20,701 nucleotides of DNA from Nitrospirota bacterium. Lineage in GTDB: Bacteria; Nitrospirota; UBA9217. The stretch lies in assembly GCA_029858565.1 (NCBI GenBank), contig JAOUEV010000056.1, forward strand, positions 1-20,701, given 5' to 3'. Below, in pieces: positions 2,527-10,187 of the stretch. Position 1 is the first letter of the stretch; each line of letters starts with the position of its first letter. The notes under the pieces were generated by a model. That model searched no databases, was not told where the DNA came from, and saw only the letters and a program-made list of their open reading frames with translations. Position numbers and translations under genes: made by a program.

Positions 2527-2720
2527 CTGTGTAATGATTCTCTTCGATCTTCGCATCCAGCGTATCTATATTGCGAGCAGTGACTTCCATAAACAGCGCC
2601 ATCTGTATTCCAGGAAGACGCTTCCGAACTGCACGAAGAATATCCTCGCGGTGAAAAAGCATCCGGCACAACAAGGGTGTAGCGATCACTCTGATCCGGA
2701 ACTGACAAGGAGACGATCCG

Positions 2721-3341
2721 ATGAACGAACTGGTCCTGATCGTGGAAGACGAAAGGTCTCTCACGGAATTGCTTGGCTACAACCTGCAAAAAGCGGGATA
2801 CAGGACTGCAGTGGCGGAGAACGGCGCGCAGGCGATCCGGAACGTGCGCTCGGAAGTCCCGGATATTGTGCTGCTGGACATTCTGCTGCCGGAAATGGAC
2901 GGATGGGAGGTTTGCAGGATGCTCAGGAACAGCAAGCAAGGTTCCACCCTTCCCATCATCATGGTGACGGCCCTCGCATCGGAGGACATCCGCATACGAG
3001 GACTGCGCGAGGGCGCCGACGACGTGATCGCGAAACCCTTTGTCGTCGGCGAGCTGTTGTTCAAGGTCCGGAAGCTTCTGGACAAGAATATGGTGATCAG
3101 CGCTTTCCGGAACAGGACCGAAGGGCAGGATGCTTCGATGCGCCATCTGATCCACGAGCTCAGGAATTCCCTTTCCGTCATCGGGGGATATGCAAACCTC
3201 GCGGCCTCGCGGGAGAACAGCGAACCGTGGGTAAAGCACGTGGTGTCCGCCGCGGACCGCATGGAACAGTTGCTGAGCAATGCGGCGACTGCGAAGTTTC
3301 CGGAAAAGGAAGCCGGAGAGGTGGGGGGACCGGGGGCATGA
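2721..3341 (+). CDS. Receiver domain plus HisKA (DHp) domain protein lacking an ATPase domain
   Basis: PhoB-like REC (IVEDE, LLDILLP, MVTA, KPF) followed by the H-box LIHELRNSLSVIGGYANL and a second helix, then stop. AAGGAG RBS. Confidence 0.85.
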   Translation: MNELVLIVEDERSLTELLGYNLQKAGYRTAVAENGAQAIRNVRSEVPDIVLLDILLPEMDGWEVCRMLRNSKQGSTLPIIMVTALASEDIRIRGLREGADDVIAKPFVVGELLFKVRKLLDKNMVISAFRNRTEGQDASMRHLIHELRNSLSVIGGYANLAASRENSEPWVKHVVSAADRMEQLLSNAATAKFPEKEAGEVGGPGA

Positions 3342-4537
3342 TGAGGACCTTGACGGAAAACGCGCTGACCTCGGCGGTCGGCAGCCTGATCGACTCCGCG
3401 GACTCCGTATCGTCGCAATCGACCGTCAACAGCGTTGCCGAGCGATTTTTCGGGAACACGGAACTCGAAGCGCTGGCGGTCGTGGACAGCGATGAGCCCG
3501 TCGGCCTGGTGACCAGGACCAAGCTGATGTTCAGTCTGTTCCGCAGGTACGGATTCGAACTTTACGGAAAGCGGCCCATTACCGCGGTTGCCGATGCCCG
3601 GCCCCTGATTGTCCCGGAGTCCGAACGGCTTGATGTGGTTATCGAGCGCGCCCTGGAGCGGCGGCCCCAGGATATCTACGACGAGATTATCGTGATCGAT
3701 GACGGCGGCCGGTACCGGGGGCTCCTGTCGGTGAAGCACCTGGTGGTCCAGCAGAGCAACGCGCTGGCCCAGACCATGCTGCAGAGGGAGATGGCGAGCG
3801 AACGGGCCCGGGAACTCGAACGCGAGAACGCCATGCGCTCGCAGTTCATGGCCCATGTGACCCACGAACTCCGGTCCCCGGTGAATGTCATCATCGGACT
3901 CTCGGAACTCATGCACATCGCGCTGGACAAGGGATCGATCGACCAGGTCCGGGACAGGCTGGGATCGATCATCTCGAACGCGACCAATCTCCGGACGATC
4001 GTCACGAACGTTCTCGATCTGTCCAAGCTCGAAGCGAATAAGATGCCCGTCTCCCTGCGCAGCTTCGATCTTGCCGATACGGTCCGGGAGGTTGCCGAAG
4101 CCGCGCGGGTACTTGTTCGCGCAAAACCGGTCGTGGTCGAGGTCTCGATCCCGGCGACAACGGTCCCCATCGAATCCGACCCGGTCAAGGTCCGGCAGAT
4201 CCTGATGAACCTTGCCGGCAACGCGGCCAAATTCACGGAACGGGGCTCCATCATGCTGGCCCTGTCCCTGAGCGGACACAGCGTCACCGTATCGGTCATC
4301 GACACCGGCATCGGCATCCGAACGGAACACCTGGATCGGCTGTTCCTTGCCTTCAGTCAGATCGAGGATGCGAAGACCAAACGGCATGAAGGCACGGGGC
4401 TGGGTCTCATGATCGCCCGGAGCATGGCGCGCCTGTTGGGAGGCGACCTGGACGTGGCAAGCGAGGCCGGTCAGGGAAGCACGTTCACCATTACCCTGCC
4501 GCGCAGGGCGGCACAGGAGGAAGCGAAAAATGCATAA
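3338..4537 (+). CDS. Soluble sensor histidine kinase with an N-terminal CBS pair
   Basis: ATGA overlap with the upstream gene. CBS pair (LAVVDSDEPVGLVTR...IIVIDDGGRYRGLLSV), H-box THELRSP, N-box NLAGNAAKFT, G1 DTGIGI, G2 GTGLGL. No TM helix. Confidence 0.9.
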   Translation: MMRTLTENALTSAVGSLIDSADSVSSQSTVNSVAERFFGNTELEALAVVDSDEPVGLVTRTKLMFSLFRRYGFELYGKRPITAVADARPLIVPESERLDVVIERALERRPQDIYDEIIVIDDGGRYRGLLSVKHLVVQQSNALAQTMLQREMASERARELERENAMRSQFMAHVTHELRSPVNVIIGLSELMHIALDKGSIDQVRDRLGSIISNATNLRTIVTNVLDLSKLEANKMPVSLRSFDLADTVREVAEAARVLVRAKPVVVEVSIPATTVPIESDPVKVRQILMNLAGNAAKFTERGSIMLALSLSGHSVTVSVIDTGIGIRTEHLDRLFLAFSQIEDAKTKRHEGTGLGLMIARSMARLLGGDLDVASEAGQGSTFTITLPRRAAQEEAKNA

Positions 4538-4949
4538 TCGGAAGAAGATCATGATCATCGACGACAACGAGGAAGTGCTCCGGGTCACGCGGGCCATTCT
4601 GGAACATGAAGGCTATGACGTCGTCACCCACCACAACGGGTTCGGCGCTACAAACGCCATCCGGGCGAACCGGCCGGACCTGGTGTTGCTGGACATCAAC
4701 ATGCCGGCGCTTTCAGGCGAGAATCTGGCGCCGATCATCCGTGAGAACGCTCATACGAACCGGGTGCCTGTCCTTTTCTACTCGTCAAATGACGAGGACA
4801 GCCTGCTCGAGAGCGTGACGCGCTTCGGCGTCGCGGGCTACATCTGCAAGGGCGACAGCGCGGATCTCCGGCGGAAAGCCGCCTATTTCCTCGGCAGCCA
4901 TCTGGCCGACGGGCAGGCTTTTGGCAGGCTTCTCTACGCGGTCGAATAG
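4530..4949 (+). CDS. Single-domain response regulator (CheY-like)
   Basis: IIDDN, LLDINMP, FYSS, ICKG. Overlaps the kinase stop; AGGAGG RBS. Confidence 0.88.
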   Translation: MHNRKKIMIIDDNEEVLRVTRAILEHEGYDVVTHHNGFGATNAIRANRPDLVLLDINMPALSGENLAPIIRENAHTNRVPVLFYSSNDEDSLLESVTRFGVAGYICKGDSADLRRKAAYFLGSHLADGQAFGRLLYAVE

Positions 4950-5022
4950 CCTGGGGGAGTGCCCCGGAAACGAAATTCACCAACCGATCATCGATCGGAT
5001 ATACCCTCAAGGAGGATGTGCA

Positions 5023-6168
5023 ATGAAAAAGCGGTTTGCAGCACTCGCGGTTATCGCGGTCAGTTGCTTGGCGGCGCCGGTATTCGGGGCCGAAGGCGAC
5101 GCGCCACTGGTAAAAGGGAACATCGAGGTCTACGGCGCGGCCAAGATGTCCGTTGATGTGATCGATACCGGCGCCAAGGCGGCGACGGCGGATACCACCA
5201 TGAACAAGGTCTCTTCGAACTCGTCCCGTCTGGGTTTCAAGGGATCCGAGGACCTGGGCGACGGCCTGAAGGCGGTGTTCCAGGTGGAGCTGGGGATCAA
5301 TATGGACGGCACCACCTCGACCGTCGCAACAGGCGTCAGCAACACGGCCACCGGCGCCGTCAGCACGACGAGCGTCAACACCATCAGCCTGCGGAACACT
5401 TTCGTCGGACTCGGGTCGGACGGTCTCGGGACCCTGATATTCGGCACCCATGATACGCCATACAAGGTCGCGACCGGCCAGTTCGACGCTTTCAGCGATA
5501 CCATGGGCGATTACAACGCAATTATGGGCAACGTAAACGGGGATGCGAACTTCGAGTTGCGGCCCAGGGATGTGATCGCGTATACGTCGCCGATCCTGGC
5601 CGGATTCCAGATCTCGGCGGCCACGGTCCTGTCGGAAACGACCAATACGGCCATTTCCGATGCAAGCGCCCATTCCTTCTCGGCGGCTTATAAAGCGGGC
5701 CCCCTGGCGCTCGCCGTCGCCCATGAGATCCACAAGAGCGGCATCGCGACGTGGGACGCGGCAACGACGATCACCGGCACCAGGGTCGGAGCGGGTTATG
5801 CGGTCGGCGGCACAAAGATCGGTCTTGTTTACGAGACCCTTTCCGACGACAAGGCGAATTCGAAATACAGCCGCAATGCCCTGCATGCAGCCGTCAGCCA
5901 GAAGTTCGGCAAGGAAACCGTAAAACTGGCATACGCCAAGGCGGACGACGGCGAGGATCCGACGACCAAGACCGGAGCGACGATGATCGTCGCAGGCATC
6001 GACCACAGTTTCTCCAAACGCACCGCAGTCTACGCCCTTTATGCGGCGACCAAGAACGACAAGGACGCCACCTACGGCCTCGGTCAGGGCGGCGCAGGCG
6101 GGGCATTCAAGCCGGGCAAGGATGAGGACCCCTCGGTCATATCCTTCGGCATCAATCACAGCTTCTGA
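5023..6168 (+). CDS. Outer-membrane trimeric-type porin (Gram-negative porin family)
   Basis: Signal peptide MKKRFAALAVIAVSCLAAPVFG; SRLGFKGSEDLGDGLKAVFQVE signature; HSFSKRTAVYA; C-terminal Phe. AAGGAGG RBS. Confidence 0.92.
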   Translation: MKKRFAALAVIAVSCLAAPVFGAEGDAPLVKGNIEVYGAAKMSVDVIDTGAKAATADTTMNKVSSNSSRLGFKGSEDLGDGLKAVFQVELGINMDGTTSTVATGVSNTATGAVSTTSVNTISLRNTFVGLGSDGLGTLIFGTHDTPYKVATGQFDAFSDTMGDYNAIMGNVNGDANFELRPRDVIAYTSPILAGFQISAATVLSETTNTAISDASAHSFSAAYKAGPLALAVAHEIHKSGIATWDAATTITGTRVGAGYAVGGTKIGLVYETLSDDKANSKYSRNALHAAVSQKFGKETVKLAYAKADDGEDPTTKTGATMIVAGIDHSFSKRTAVYALYAATKNDKDATYGLGQGGAGGAFKPGKDEDPSVISFGINHSF

Positions 6169-6178
6169 TCCGCTCCAG

Positions 6179-6234
6179 ACGTCATCGGGATGTAATGCAA
6201 CCGTAATTGAAATGTAACAACCGAATGGTATAAA
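6179..6234 (+). promoter_or_regulatory. Pho-box array and extended -10 element of pstS
   Basis: ACGTCAT 6179, ATGTAAT 6190, CCGTAAT 6201, ATGTAAC 6212 (11-bp period); then 10 nt and TG-G-TATAAA (hexamer at 6229). Confidence 0.85.
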
Positions 6235-6265
6235 CCGGCAGTCAAACATAAGGAGGTGTGTATCT

Positions 6266-7279
6266 ATGAAGAAATTGATTTATGTTGTAGCAGTTCTGTT
6301 CGTTGTTTTCGGAAGCATCGCTGCCGGTCACGCGGCGGAAACCCTGAACGGCGCGGGCGCGACCTTTCCCTATCCGGTCTACTCGGCCTGGGCTTTCGAG
6401 TACAGCAAGGTGGCGGGCACGCAGCTCAACTACCAGTCCATCGGCTCAGGCGGCGGTATCAAACAGATCATCGAGCGTACCGTGCACTTCGGCGCTTCGG
6501 ACAAACCGTTGAAACCCGAAGAACTCGCCAAGGACAAGCTCCTGCAGTTCCCTGCGGTGGTTGGGGGCGTGGTATTCGTCGTGAATATCGAAGGAGTCAA
6601 GGAAGGCACGATGAAACTTGACGGCGATACCGCCTGCGGTATTTTCCTCGGGGATATCAAAAAATGGAATGACCCGCGGATCGCGGGAATGAACAAGGAG
6701 CTGAAGCTGCCTGACGCCGACATCACGGTCGTGCATCGCTCCGATGGTTCCGGGACCACGGCGATCTTCACCGACTATCTGAACGGCGTATGCCCGGCAT
6801 GGAAGGATAGGGTCGGAAGCGGAACGTCGGTGAACTGGCCTGCCGGGATCGGCGGCAAGGGGAATGAGGGCGTTTCGAATTACGTGATACGGACCGCCAA
6901 TACCATCGGCTACGTGGAGTTCGCCTATGCCAGGCAGAACAAGATGGTGCACACCAAACTGAAGAACAAAGCCGGCGCCTTTGTGGAGCCGAGCTTCGAG
7001 AGCTTCGAGGATGCGGCCGAGACCGGAACCTTCGATCCGAAGCAGGATTTCTTCATCTGGCTTACCAACGCACCGGGCAAGAACGCATGGCCGGTCGCGG
7101 GAGCCACGTTCATCCTGCTTGCAAAAGAAAAGAAAGATGACAACCTCAAGGTCGTGAATTTCTTCGACTGGGCATTCCGGAACGGCGACACCAAGGCAAA
7201 GGAACTGATCTATGTGCCGCTTCCGAAATCCCTCAAGGACAAGATACGCGACTACTGGAAAGCCAACGGTATCTTGTAA
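6266..7279 (+). CDS. pstS: Phosphate ABC transporter periplasmic binding protein PstS
   Basis: GAGATFPYPVY, NYQSIGSGGG, FGASD, HRSDGSGTT, GGKGNEGV motifs; signal peptide; AAGGAGG RBS. Confidence 0.97.
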   Translation: MKKLIYVVAVLFVVFGSIAAGHAAETLNGAGATFPYPVYSAWAFEYSKVAGTQLNYQSIGSGGGIKQIIERTVHFGASDKPLKPEELAKDKLLQFPAVVGGVVFVVNIEGVKEGTMKLDGDTACGIFLGDIKKWNDPRIAGMNKELKLPDADITVVHRSDGSGTTAIFTDYLNGVCPAWKDRVGSGTSVNWPAGIGGKGNEGVSNYVIRTANTIGYVEFAYARQNKMVHTKLKNKAGAFVEPSFESFEDAAETGTFDPKQDFFIWLTNAPGKNAWPVAGATFILLAKEKKDDNLKVVNFFDWAFRNGDTKAKELIYVPLPKSLKDKIRDYWKANGIL

Positions 7280-7427
7280 ATCTCCAGTGGAACGCAGCTG
7301 TGCCAAACGGGTCAGGCATGGATAGGGAGTCTGCCCCTTTTTCCTTCGCAGGTGAGAAGCCTTCCTGGATAAGGAAGAGCAGGGACGAGGTAGATTATAA
7401 GATGCAGTGTTTCATGTTTGGCATCGG

Positions 7428-7463
7428 ATAAAATAAACGCCGGCAGGAAAACCCGCCGGCGTT
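7428..7463 (-). terminator. Intrinsic terminator of the cytochrome gene, possibly bidirectional with pstS
   Basis: Minus strand: AACGCCGGCGGG-TTTT-CCTGCCGGCGTT followed by TATTTTAT. Confidence 0.8.
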
Positions 7464-7503
7464 ATATTATCATAGTATATCTTGCTTACTCTTGTCTTTT
7501 GTA

Positions 7504-8805
7504 CTATACCCCGCCCTTTTCCAGGGTAACCTTCTTCGTCACCTTGTGCCAGGTGATGCCCGATTCCTTGTCCCCGAAAGGCATGTACATCAGCTCGATC
7601 TCCACGGTCATATCGTAATCGAGAATGTTTGTCTTGCCATCCTTGAACTCTGCGGGGAAGGGGATCTCGAACTGCTCATGCACGGGCTTGTGGGGCGGCA
7701 GTCCGTTGTCGCGGATGATGCCGCTCTTTTCATAGGGTCCGCGGCCCATCTTGTCGCCGCGGCCGAGCTGCTGGGGTATGGGCATGTAGATACGGGTGTG
7801 CTTTGCGATCTCTTTACCTTTTGAATCTTTCGCGGTCACTTCCAGGACCAGCCGGTTGGGGGTTGGTCAGCCATCGGGGATCGAGTGGCCCGCGCGGTTG
7901 GTCATGTCGACCTTGACCAGCGTCTGGGGTATCATCTTGGACTTGTCGCGCCAGATGTAGCCCAGCGTTTCGACCTGGAAGTCCACGGCGGACTTGCCGA
8001 AGTTGATGTCGCTGTAGCTCTGCATGTTGTGGCCCATCTTGCTCTTCTTCATGTGGCATTCCTGGCAGCTTTCCTGTCCGCCTTCCGCCCGGTAGGCCCA
8101 GAGATAACTGCCGTAGAGCGTGCCGCACTGCGAAGGGTTCTCGAGCTCGAAGTTCGGCCCCAGGCCGTGGCACTGGCCGCAGAGGATCGACTCGCTCATG
8201 ATCGGGCTCTTCTTCATGACAGCGTGGTTCGAATCTGCGTGCGTTCCATCCTTGGACCCGTAGACCTCGTTCTTCTGCGGGAAACCGTCCACCCACTTAT
8301 GAACGATCGCGTTCCGCTGATGACAGATGAGGCAATTGATGTTGATCGAAGAAAGTTTCTGCTCGATCTTGTCCTTTTCCTCTGACGAGGTAGCCTTGTC
8401 GCCGTATCTGATCGAGAGCTTCACGATCTCCCTGGCAACGTCGTCCGTGGCCTCCGCCATCTGCGGAAGATGGCACTTGAAGCAGACCATCAAATGCTTG
8501 ACCTTCACGTCCTCGGGTTTCTTCACCCCCGAATACTGCCAGCCCATGAGACCGACCTTGACGGTCGTCGCCACGGTCAGTGCTGTTCTGCCGGTGCCGA
8601 AGATGGACCGTGCATGGAGCGACTGGTTCCAGTCGTTGTAGATCCCCTCATGGCACTGTTTGCAGCCGCTTGAGTCGTACATCTTCGCCAGTTCATCGAT
8701 GCTCTTCGCCTTTTTTTCCTCGGCTGCCGTTGCCATGCCGGGAACACCGGCAAGGAGCGGCAGCGCGAGCACTGCGGTTACTGCGATAGATCTTAAAAAC
8801 TTCAT
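7504..8805 (-). CDS. extKL: Selenocysteine-containing pentaheme cytochrome c (ExtKL/MccSep type), about 433 aa, Sec at TGA 7869-7867
   Basis: Signal peptide; five CxxCH motifs (CKQCH, CFKCH, CLICH, CGQCH, CQECH). ...AGHSIPDG-TGA-PTPNRLVLEVTAKD... continues in frame to TAG at 7504. SECIS-like hairpin after the TGA; AGGAGG RBS before ATG 8805. Confidence 0.9.
7832..7852 (-). promoter_or_regulatory. Putative bacterial SECIS element
   Basis: mRNA +15..+35 after UGA folds as GC[U]GGUC-C-UGGAA-G[U]GACC-GC: bulged U and G-containing apical loop at the usual distance. Confidence 0.7.
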
Positions 8806-8873
8806 GCGCACGCCTCCTTTCAGGGATTACTGCGGAGATCGGAGAAACAGCTCGATCTGCAGCATTGTAATAC

Positions 8874-8902
8874 TGTATAGATGCTGTGGAAAATGATGTC
8901 AA
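8874..8902 (-). promoter_or_regulatory. Sigma70 promoter of the cytochrome gene
   Basis: Minus strand reads TTGACA-17 nt-TATACA. Confidence 0.65.
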
Positions 8903-8951
8903 GGAGAATACGTTGTTCTACGGTTAATTGTTCAGAAGAGTGCAGGAAATG

Positions 8952-10187
8952 TCAGTATGTTCGCAGAACAAGAGCGGCATTTAAGCCGCCGAAACCGAAA
9001 GAATTGGAAAGGGCTGCGCGGAGCGGGATTTTCCGAACAGCGTTTGGCACGTAGTCCAGGTCGCATTCCGGATCAGGATGATCGTAGTTGATCGTTGGCG
9101 GGATCATGTTTTCGCGAAGCGCGAGCGCGGTAACTGCTGCTTCGACAGCACCGGCTGCGCCGAGCATATGGCCGAGCATGGATTTGATGGAACTGACGGA
9201 GAGCCTGTTCGCGTGGCCGCCGAAGACCTTCCTGATGGCGCGGGTCTCAACGCGGTCATTGGGGACCGTTGACGTGCCGTGGGCGTTGATATAGTCGATC
9301 ATATCGTGACCCATGTCCGCGTCGGAGAGAGCAAGCTCCATTGCACGTGCAGCTCCGTTCCCGTCGGGGTCCGGCATGGTGTAGTGAAAGGCGTCTGCAG
9401 AGAGACCATACCCGGCAAGTTCGGCGTAGACCCTCGCGCCGCGTTTTTCCGCATGGCCCAGTTCCTCGAGCACCAGCACCGCTGCTCCTTCGGAAAGTAC
9501 GAATCCATCGCGGTCCCGTTCAAAGGGACGGCTTGCCCGGTCCGGAGCGTCGTTGCGCCGCGTCAGAGCCCGTGCCTGGCTGAAGCCCGCAAGCACGAGC
9601 GGAGTGAGCGCGGCTTCGGACCCGCCGGTGATCATGATGTCGGCATCACCGCGCTGGATGATCTTCATGGCCTCGCCGATGGCATGCGTGCCGGTTGCGC
9701 AGGCGGTGGATACGTCGAGGCAGGGGCCCCGGGCGCCCAAGCGCATGGCGATGAAGCCTGAGGCCATGTTTGCCAGGGTCATGGGCGTGTAGAAAGGGGA
9801 AACGGCCCGGTGTCCTGAAGCGAGGAAGGCGATCAGATTTTTCTCGTTCGTCGTAACGCCGCCCCTGCCGGAACCCACCAGCACCCCCGTGAGACGTGAG
9901 GCGTGAGGCGTTAAAGACAACTTCGCATCCTCAGCGGCCATGAGGGCCGAAGCGAGTGCATACTGGATAAAGGGATCGGTCTTGTGACAGTCCTTGGCGC
10001 TCATGAACGCCAAAGGATCAAACCCCCGCACCTCTCCGCCGATCCTGACCGGAAGCGCGGATGCGTCGAACCTCGTGATCGTGGAAATGCCGGAACGACC
10101 ATCGACGAGGTTCTTCCACAGGGTGCGGATATCATTGCCCAGGGGGGTGACTGCTCCCATTCCTGTTATAACGACCCTTCGTTTCAT
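8952..10187 (-). CDS. fabF: 3-oxoacyl-ACP synthase II
   Basis: MKRRVVITGMGAVTPLG start; catalytic TACATG, NAHGTST, KSMLGHMLGAAG; SNSFGFGG. Confidence 0.95.
   Translation of the reverse strand: MKRRVVITGMGAVTPLGNDIRTLWKNLVDGRSGISTITRFDASALPVRIGGEVRGFDPLAFMSAKDCHKTDPFIQYALASALMAAEDAKLSLTPHASRLTGVLVGSGRGGVTTNEKNLIAFLASGHRAVSPFYTPMTLANMASGFIAMRLGARGPCLDVSTACATGTHAIGEAMKIIQRGDADIMITGGSEAALTPLVLAGFSQARALTRRNDAPDRASRPFERDRDGFVLSEGAAVLVLEELGHAEKRGARVYAELAGYGLSADAFHYTMPDPDGNGAARAMELALSDADMGHDMIDYINAHGTSTVPNDRVETRAIRKVFGGHANRLSVSSIKSMLGHMLGAAGAVEAAVTALALRENMIPPTINYDHPDPECDLDYVPNAVRKIPLRAALSNSFGFGGLNAALVLRTY
9888..9915 (+). repeat. Heptamer tandem repeat (CGTGAGR) inside fabF
   Basis: CGTGAGA CGTGAGG CGTGAGG CGTTAAA; encodes LTPHASRLT on the minus strand. 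Confidence 0.6.

Follow-up and report, generated by a model that had tools for sequence, protein, structure and literature searches.

The stretch of DNA analyzed here (the window) comprises all 20,701 nucleotides (nt) of contig JAOUEV010000056.1 from a Nitrospirota bacterium of the GTDB lineage UBA9217 (assembly GCA_029858565.1), and coordinates without a contig or locus name are positions in this window. On its minus strand lies a gene, mccsep (extKL), for a five-heme c-type cytochrome whose reading frame continues through an in-frame UGA and which we assign to the known MccSep family of selenocysteine (Sec)-containing cytochromes. Positions 7504-8805 form one 433-codon frame from an ATG at 8805 to a TAG at 7504-7506 with a single internal stop, a TGA at codon 313 (7867-7869) in the context GHSIPDG-U-PTPNRLVLEV. 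The first-pass annotation, made from the letters of the DNA, had described two same-frame open reading frames (ORFs) parted only by this TGA, and we confirmed that ORFs 7867-8811 and 7504-7839, both on the minus strand, are the two halves of the 433-codon frame. The gene and its flanking signals contain the following features:

8864..8892, minus strand: sigma-70-like promoter, TTTCCA, 17-nt spacer, TACAAT (consensus match only)
8813..8819, minus strand: Shine-Dalgarno sequence AAGGAGG, 7 nt before the ATG (sequence read directly)
7504..8805, minus strand: mccsep (extKL) coding sequence, 433 codons including predicted Sec313 (frame and family match)
8725..8805, minus strand: signal-peptide-like N terminus, residues 1-27, composed of MKFLR, a hydrophobic run, and ATA-AE (by eye)
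8650..8664, minus strand: heme motif 1, CKQCH, residues 48-52
8470..8484, minus strand: heme motif 2, CFKCH, residues 108-112; H112 is the counterpart of H122 in Geobacter MccSep
8320..8334, minus strand: heme motif 3, CLICH, residues 158-162
8167..8181, minus strand: heme motif 4, CGQCH, residues 209-213
8125..8127, minus strand: C227, aligned with C239 of Geobacter MccSep (heme 2 distal ligand)
8053..8067, minus strand: heme motif 5, CQECH, residues 247-251
7867..7869, minus strand: UGA codon 313 in the D-G-U-P loop, aligned with U325 of Geobacter MccSep
7834..7857, minus strand: codons 317-324 (NRLVLEVT), free of synonymous changes among 30 close orthologues
7832..7851, minus strand: bulged hairpin resembling a selenocysteine insertion sequence (SECIS), +16 to +35 after the UGA, loop at 7840-7844
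7436..7463, minus strand: intrinsic-terminator-like hairpin of 12 pairs (9 G-C), followed by a T-rich stretch

We prefer the ATG at 8803-8805, which has AAGGAGG 7 nt upstream, over a less good GTG at 8811. No Shine-Dalgarno-like sequence was observed ahead of GTG 7839, the start of the second ORF, which agrees with the earlier statement that this ORF lacks a convincing ribosome-binding site of its own. Exactly five CxxCH motifs are present, beginning at residues 48, 108, 158, 209, and 247, and the only cysteine outside of these motifs (the TGA residue aside) is C227 in PSQCGTLY, as had also been described. Attachment of c-type hemes occurs outside the cytoplasm, and residues 1-27 look like a Sec (secretory) signal peptide; since these residues contain no cysteine, the protein does not appear to be a lipoprotein. 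The promoter and terminator that had been assigned to the gene both have counterparts in the promoter-like and strong terminator-like sequences listed above. The one notable match in Rfam, to L20_leader (27.7 bits relative to a gathering score of 58.7), was rejected as being the terminator hairpin.

For family searches, the read-through product was written with cysteine standing for Sec. This product matched the NCBIfam equivalog model NF040886, titled 'multiheme c-type cytochrome (seleno)protein ExtKL', with 581.6 bits relative to a cut-off of 250, and the alignment placed residues 11-428 on profile positions 8-422 of 423, thus covering 415 of the 423 positions. A six-frame search of the genome likewise returned NF040886 at mccsep with 574.3 bits and one TGA inside the match, and Pfam recognized generic multiheme domains only. 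In the PDB, query residues 14-430 aligned with chain residues 20-447 of Geobacter sulfurreducens MccSep (9wt8, 9wt9, and related entries) with E values of 1.5e-170 to 2.8e-170. By hand count along this alignment, U325, C239, H122, R83, and K372 of the Geobacter protein correspond to U313, C227, H112, R73, and K360 of the window protein. The five heme motifs and the tested residues are invariant in 83 non-identical homologues, barring gaps in sequences cut by contig ends: C227 is present in 83 of 83, and H112, R73, and K360 are each found in 82, with the remaining sequence gapped there. The closest public relatives are Nitrospirota metagenome-assembled genomes, with up to 85% identity; for Geobacteraceae orthologues, identity to the window protein is 56-58%. 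The window's genome contains a single MccSep copy, and two or three paralogues with one TGA each occur in some genomes of the same family (G007, G008, G009, and G021). These matches identify the window gene as one orthologue of a family that is already known, in keeping with the first-pass proposal of a Geobacter ExtKL (MccSep)-type five-heme Sec cytochrome.

The known family provides the framework for reading this gene. It has a curated NCBIfam model, solved structures, biochemistry, genetics, and a reported spread into Nitrospirota. As described in the main text of the MccSep paper (Sci Adv 2026; PMC13510729) and its preprint, Geobacter MccSep forms a homotetramer in the periplasm, and each subunit binds five hemes. 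Heme 2, the active-site heme, is His/Cys-ligated, with H122 as the proximal and C239 as the distal ligand (PMC13510729). The protein was shown to contain Sec, to be a polysulfide reductase required in elemental sulfur (S0) respiration, and to reduce selenite in vitro as well (PMC13510729). Mutants with U325A, U325C, or C239H lost polysulfide and selenite reductase activity and did not restore S0 reduction in vivo, and R83A and K372A likewise failed to complement (PMC13510729). In the published cycle, a selenolate attacks the substrate to give an Se-S-S(Cys) intermediate that is reduced by heme 2 (PMC13510729). The same text places homologues mainly in Desulfobacterota and Nitrospirota, with 394 of 637 sequences recovered via UGA read-through, and describes many MccSep hosts as disproportionators (PMC13510729). 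The extKL genes were first linked to selenite reduction and were predicted to encode a Geobacter selenoprotein, as cited in PMC5877670, and ExtKL is included in a 2026 review of prokaryotic selenoproteins (PMC13188914).

The window protein shares with Geobacter MccSep/ExtKL (gsu2937-2936; 9wt8, 9wt9, 9wta-c) its length, a signal-peptide-like N terminus, five CxxCH motifs, the heme 2 distal cysteine, a C-terminal D-G-U-P loop, a UGA predicted to encode Sec and followed by a putative stem-loop, and the conserved arginine and lysine. The two differ in the residue after the ligand cysteine, which is glycine in the window protein and cysteine in Geobacter MccSep, and in the SECIS region, where both the sequence and the register of the window hairpin differ from those of Geobacteraceae loci. 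They also differ in host and in gene context. In the Geobacter ext cluster, extKL is preceded by extHIJ (rhodanese, porin, small protein) and followed by extMNOPQS (12-heme cytochrome, 10-heme cytochrome, Rieske protein, cytochrome b, membrane protein, 4-heme cytochrome), whereas the window gene, in a Nitrospirota host, follows fabF with no extHIJ upstream and no extMNOPQS downstream.

We compared the UGA codon and its surroundings across 92 loci: the window, 11 loci from genomes of relatives, and 80 named public loci, all found with search patterns that left out the Sec site. Some redundancy remains in this set (the same species twice), so that it holds 83 distinct coding sequences and 79 distinct 60-nt segments. 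A TGA occupies the position of codon 313 in all 92 loci, which span at least two phyla; the first-pass annotation had looked to the residue after IPDG in homologues as informative, and it is this codon in every case. Among 41 related genomes, 23 matches exceeded the NF040886 cut-off, and 22 of these hold exactly one TGA; in the 23rd, the contig end falls before the Sec site. TGA is otherwise a normal stop in this DNA: it ends five of nine well-supported window genes, and the end of FabF matches the end of its family profile.

The nucleotides after the UGA appear to be constrained beyond the protein that they encode. In a set of 30 close orthologues (identity to the window protein of 68% or higher), codons 317-324 have a codon entropy of zero and rank first among 189 eight-codon segments (gene mean, 0.90 bits), and the same segment ranks first of 67 across all 83 sequences. 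The third positions of codons 314-315, directly 3' of the UGA, vary freely. We regard the frozen codons as evidence for a SECIS element that is drawn from sequence only. Considered together, the conserved codon, the RNA constraint, the Sec machinery of the host (see below), and the lack of a general TGA reassignment indicate that UGA 313 is recoded as Sec.

A hairpin at +16 to +35 (7832-7851) overlaps codons 317-324, and it matches the bulged hairpin that had been placed 15-35 nt downstream of the UGA. When folded alone, 27 nt of this region reach -7.2 kcal/mol in a stem that carries two bulged U residues and ends in a loop of GGA or UGGAA. Over the 79 distinct sequences, 82.5% of the cells form standard pairs, and sliding the 3' partner by one to three columns gives 18-58%. 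Covariation is seen in three pairs, with 13 cells changed on both sides relative to 7.0 +/- 1.5 in shuffled alignments; none of 500 shuffles reached 13, although this shuffle control overstates significance among related sequences. We conclude that an RNA element is present after the UGA, with the hairpin at +16 to +35 as its candidate fold.

The genome (3.9 Mb in 144 contigs, 100% complete) encodes the machinery for Sec insertion, and the genes selA, selB, selC, and selD, to which the first-pass annotation had pointed, all have counterparts above family cut-offs. selA (604 bits) and selB (389 bits) adjoin each other, and a Sec-specific transfer RNA (tRNA-Sec) scored 64 bits relative to a gathering score of 47 and was called by ARAGORN as tRNA-SeC with anticodon tca. 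Two selD genes are present (contig C3, 2376-3290; contig C14, 90529-91446) with one in-frame TGA each, so that the duplicated selenophosphate synthetase is likely itself a selenoprotein. Cytochrome c assembly genes were also found, as was dsrA, with a weaker second match to the dsrA model directly downstream. The assembly genes and dsrA fit with an anaerobe living on sulfur compounds.

Matches to the gene also occur in RNA libraries. Four runs from two studies (X1, X2, X3, and X5) cover parts of the gene at 90-100% likeness, and among the records listed, one alone (X5, record 27) spans the TGA, with 31 letters on each side. A T-to-G difference at 7864 among these records is synonymous (Pro314). 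Because such libraries may contain DNA, these matches are no proof of transcription or read-through.

Taking these lines together, we consider it very probable that the locus encodes a Sec-containing MccSep polysulfide reductase, which is the best overall explanation of our data. In this model, SelB and tRNA-Sec would recode UGA 313 to Sec, guided by the messenger RNA hairpin whose start lies about 16 nt past this codon. Once the protein is exported and its hemes are attached, Sec313, part of the D-G-U-P loop in the C-terminal domain, would lie beside heme 2, with Cys227 as the sixth ligand of this heme. By analogy with the Geobacter enzyme, the selenolate would attack a polysulfide (or selenite) substrate to form a Sec-Se-S-S-Cys intermediate, and electrons arriving via the heme chain at heme 2 would cleave this intermediate and release sulfide. 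Because all mutationally tested residues are conserved, the same chemistry as in the Geobacter enzyme is the best inference. Homology to the published enzyme and these residues likewise favor the first-pass view of a periplasmic polysulfide reductase with a Sec-Cys-heme site. On the same grounds, we infer Sec insertion, a periplasmic location, tetramer formation, and polysulfide reductase activity, together with a role in sulfur respiration or disproportionation in a dsrAB-bearing Nitrospirota host.

Several observations weigh against this explanation. The folding energy of the region after the UGA was no better than that of shuffled sequences (z of -0.82 for 27 nt, 0.14 for 50 nt, and 0.43 for 86 nt), and, because these energies are unremarkable, we take the support for the hairpin to be comparative. 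An Rfam scan of 7400-9000 (E <= 10) gave no SECIS family, and RNAalifold on the 79 segments found no meaningful consensus. A rival hairpin, which takes in the GA of the UGA and cannot form together with the first, is also 82.5% paired, with zero covariation, and several clades require a shifted hairpin register when inspected by eye. We also searched the window's genome by tblastn (E <= 1e-3) with nine proteins (ExtH, ExtI, ExtJ, ExtM, ExtN, ExtO, ExtP, ExtQ, and ExtS) from a Geobacteraceae locus, L075, which rhodanese and Porin_O_P domains confirm as an ext cluster. ExtH, ExtI, ExtJ, ExtM, ExtN, ExtQ, and ExtS were not found. Finally, the physiological substrate in this host could differ from that in Geobacter.

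The alternatives to a Sec-containing MccSep can be separated into those that concern the codon and one that concerns the function. If translation really ended at the TGA, the gene would be split or decaying and would yield a pentaheme cytochrome of 312 residues, either by itself or alongside a separate product of 111 residues. This is how the standard code ends the frame, and the unremarkable free energy of the hairpin is compatible with it. We nonetheless find it barely credible given a TGA at the exact codon in 92 of 92 loci, a downstream frame that is intact and conserved, a second ORF without a ribosome-binding site, synonymous sites that are frozen just past the TGA, complete Sec machinery in the host, and a Geobacter homologue that was shown to hold Sec. 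Reading of the UGA by a near-cognate standard tRNA (Trp or Cys) or under a reassigned code, rather than by tRNA-Sec, also seems extremely improbable. The stop function of TGA in five of nine window genes and the agreement of the FabF end with that of its full-length family profile speak against it, as do the presence of selA, selB, selD, and tRNA-Sec and the severe loss of activity and failed complementation of Geobacter U325C. We found nothing specific in its favor beyond the consideration that sequence cannot tell plain read-through from Sec insertion.

A more substantial alternative, which we still regard as unlikely, accepts an MccSep orthologue with Sec and gives it a physiological job in the Nitrospirota host other than respiratory polysulfide reduction. 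Such a job might be selenite or tellurite detoxification or reduction, sulfur disproportionation, or a reaction running toward sulfide oxidation, and the partner proteins would differ from the Geobacter ones. The in vitro selenite reduction by the Geobacter enzyme and the first connection of extKL to selenite reduction lend this possibility some weight, as do the seven undetected Ext proteins, a host dsrA that implies further sulfur pathways, and the many disproportionators among MccSep hosts that the MccSep paper describes. Against it, the residues on which polysulfide reduction and the S0 phenotype in vivo depend are all conserved, and no sequence feature indicates a different substrate.

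The predicted enzyme can also be set beside other known enzymes. The thiosulfate dehydrogenase TsdA and SoxAX perform sulfur chemistry at a heme with a distal cysteine, a likeness to MccSep drawn in the main text of its authors (PMC13510729), but these are diheme proteins without Sec that work in the oxidative direction, and no TsdA or SoxAX sequence match appeared in Pfam, NCBIfam, or PDB searches of the window protein. The Y-shaped five-heme arrangement of NrfA and MccA superimposes on that of MccSep, according to the same text (PMC13510729). However, the protein folds of NrfA and MccA are unrelated to that of MccSep, and both bind substrate on an open heme site, whereas in MccSep a cysteine fills this site and Sec does the chemistry. 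The molybdopterin polysulfide reductase PsrABC catalyzes the same net reaction as MccSep (polysulfide to sulfide in anaerobic respiration) but is an unrelated molybdenum/iron-sulfur membrane complex that lacks heme c and whose described catalytic mechanism does not involve Sec.

The window gene adds nothing new on MccSep itself. Its recovery demonstrates that a reading of raw sequence can retrieve the gene of a recoded selenoprotein where ordinary gene callers report two separate pieces.

The first-pass annotation had considered it unusual for this gene to stand alone without neighboring ext genes. Our comparison of loci does not support that view, because ext neighbors are rare: of the 63 loci with sufficient flanking sequence, only 5 have ExtN/ExtP-type genes downstream of mccsep. 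Another 51-locus set has 3 kb of flank on each side; a second ORF with at least four heme motifs within about 5.5 kb was present in 10 of these loci and absent in the other 41, the window included. fabF is located directly upstream of mccsep on the same strand in 13 of 60 loci, again including the window, and a gene for a DUF3373 protein is upstream in 8 of 60. These counts indicate that the ext cluster is a Geobacterales feature and that the window has the usual arrangement of its lineage, with mccsep downstream of fabF, making the ext context the exception and not the rule. A gene-neighborhood analysis of MccSep was not found in the main text of the published paper (PMC13510729) or of the preprint.

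For ext partners elsewhere in the genome, to which the first-pass annotation had also pointed, the tblastn matches were limited to two generic Rieske/cytochrome b pairs. These pairs (contig C46, 41628-43028; contig C122, 19999-20913) are 30-39% identical to ExtO and ExtP, and both are possible quinol-oxidizing entry points for periplasmic electron transfer.

The same genome encodes a second candidate Sec-containing multiheme cytochrome. On contig C16 (3866-5767, plus strand; locus L125), a multiheme cytochrome c gene of about 633 residues contains an in-frame TGA at residue 207 in the context HGPNN-U-GPSFADT, and a perfect 7-pair hairpin with a GGUC loop lies nineteen nt past the TGA. The TGA is kept in 11 of 12 loci of relatives, whose stems differ from that in the window's genome by a compensatory G-C to U-A change. 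In the twelfth locus, the codon is TGT (Cys), and by eye the perfect stem is no longer formed. All 13 full-length public homologues have cysteine at the equivalent of position 207. Public gene calls split the Sec forms, which occur there as truncated pieces of 360-430 residues, most of them unnamed and the others named 'hypothetical protein' or 'cytochrome c3 family protein'. No NCBIfam model was matched over its cut-off, no solved structure was matched in the PDB, and Pfam returned generic cytochrome domains only. In the passages of the 2026 review that our search covered, the cytochrome-type selenoproteins named comprise ExtKL, the GSU2204 family, and the octaheme tetrathionate reductase family (PMC13188914). 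The C16 cytochrome thus looks like a candidate for an undescribed selenoprotein family, and we consider this second multiheme cytochrome a more promising lead than the window gene.

The sole pointer to a connection between the C16 cytochrome and MccSep is the adjacency of their genes in a single lineage. In Dissulfurispiraceae-type loci (L078, L080, L083, L084, and L087), a large cytochrome directly upstream of mccsep is 32% identical to the C16 protein (E = 4e-96). Four of these loci (L078, 5834-11233; L083, 5096-10358; L084, 2914-8266; L087, 4891-10242) have the same same-strand order: a gene for a DUF3373 outer-membrane protein, a gene for a 108-residue protein ending in Gly-Cys, the cytochrome gene, and mccsep. 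The cytochrome in these four loci has roughly 600 residues and nine CxxCH motifs and is a Cys form of the C16 protein. In the window's genome, unlike in the Dissulfurispiraceae-type loci, the genes of this module are scattered. Co-occurrence is loose: matches to the C16 protein (E <= 1e-20) were found in 21 of 24 genomes of the same family, compared to MccSep over cut-off in 17 of 24, with the former count including distant paralogues and the related genomes not being independent. It is conceivable, though we think it doubtful, that Nitrospirota MccSep works without the ext conduit in an undescribed sulfur-reduction module; if so, the organism would use two Sec-containing multiheme cytochromes in one pathway.

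Other genes around this module drew our attention. ExtJ of the Geobacteraceae locus (L075, 9532-9849) also ends in Gly-Cys, and ExtJ and the small Gly-Cys-ended protein have no significant similarity (E = 1.4). As speculation, these endings could suggest a C-terminal cysteine that serves as a sulfur carrier. In three other Nitrospirota loci (L044, L059, and L068), whose MccSep proteins are 73-76% identical to the window protein, a DUF3373 gene is directly upstream of mccsep. The single DUF3373 gene of the window's genome (contig C62, 42769-44010) is found beside genes for an ArsR-type regulator and an AhpC/TSA-type redoxin; we rejected this locus as an MccSep partner, as no link to MccSep was seen at C62.

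The neighbors of mccsep in the window are unrelated to MccSep and encode a histidine kinase, a response regulator, a Porin_4 porin, PstS, FabF, a DUF4912 protein, a GH57 branching enzyme, and GlcD. The genes for the histidine kinase, response regulator, Porin_4 porin, and PstS follow each other on the plus strand at 2534-7279, convergent with mccsep, and look like a phosphate-uptake set. Within this group, ORF 2534-4537 probably has its true start further downstream, because its family matches begin only at about residue 360.

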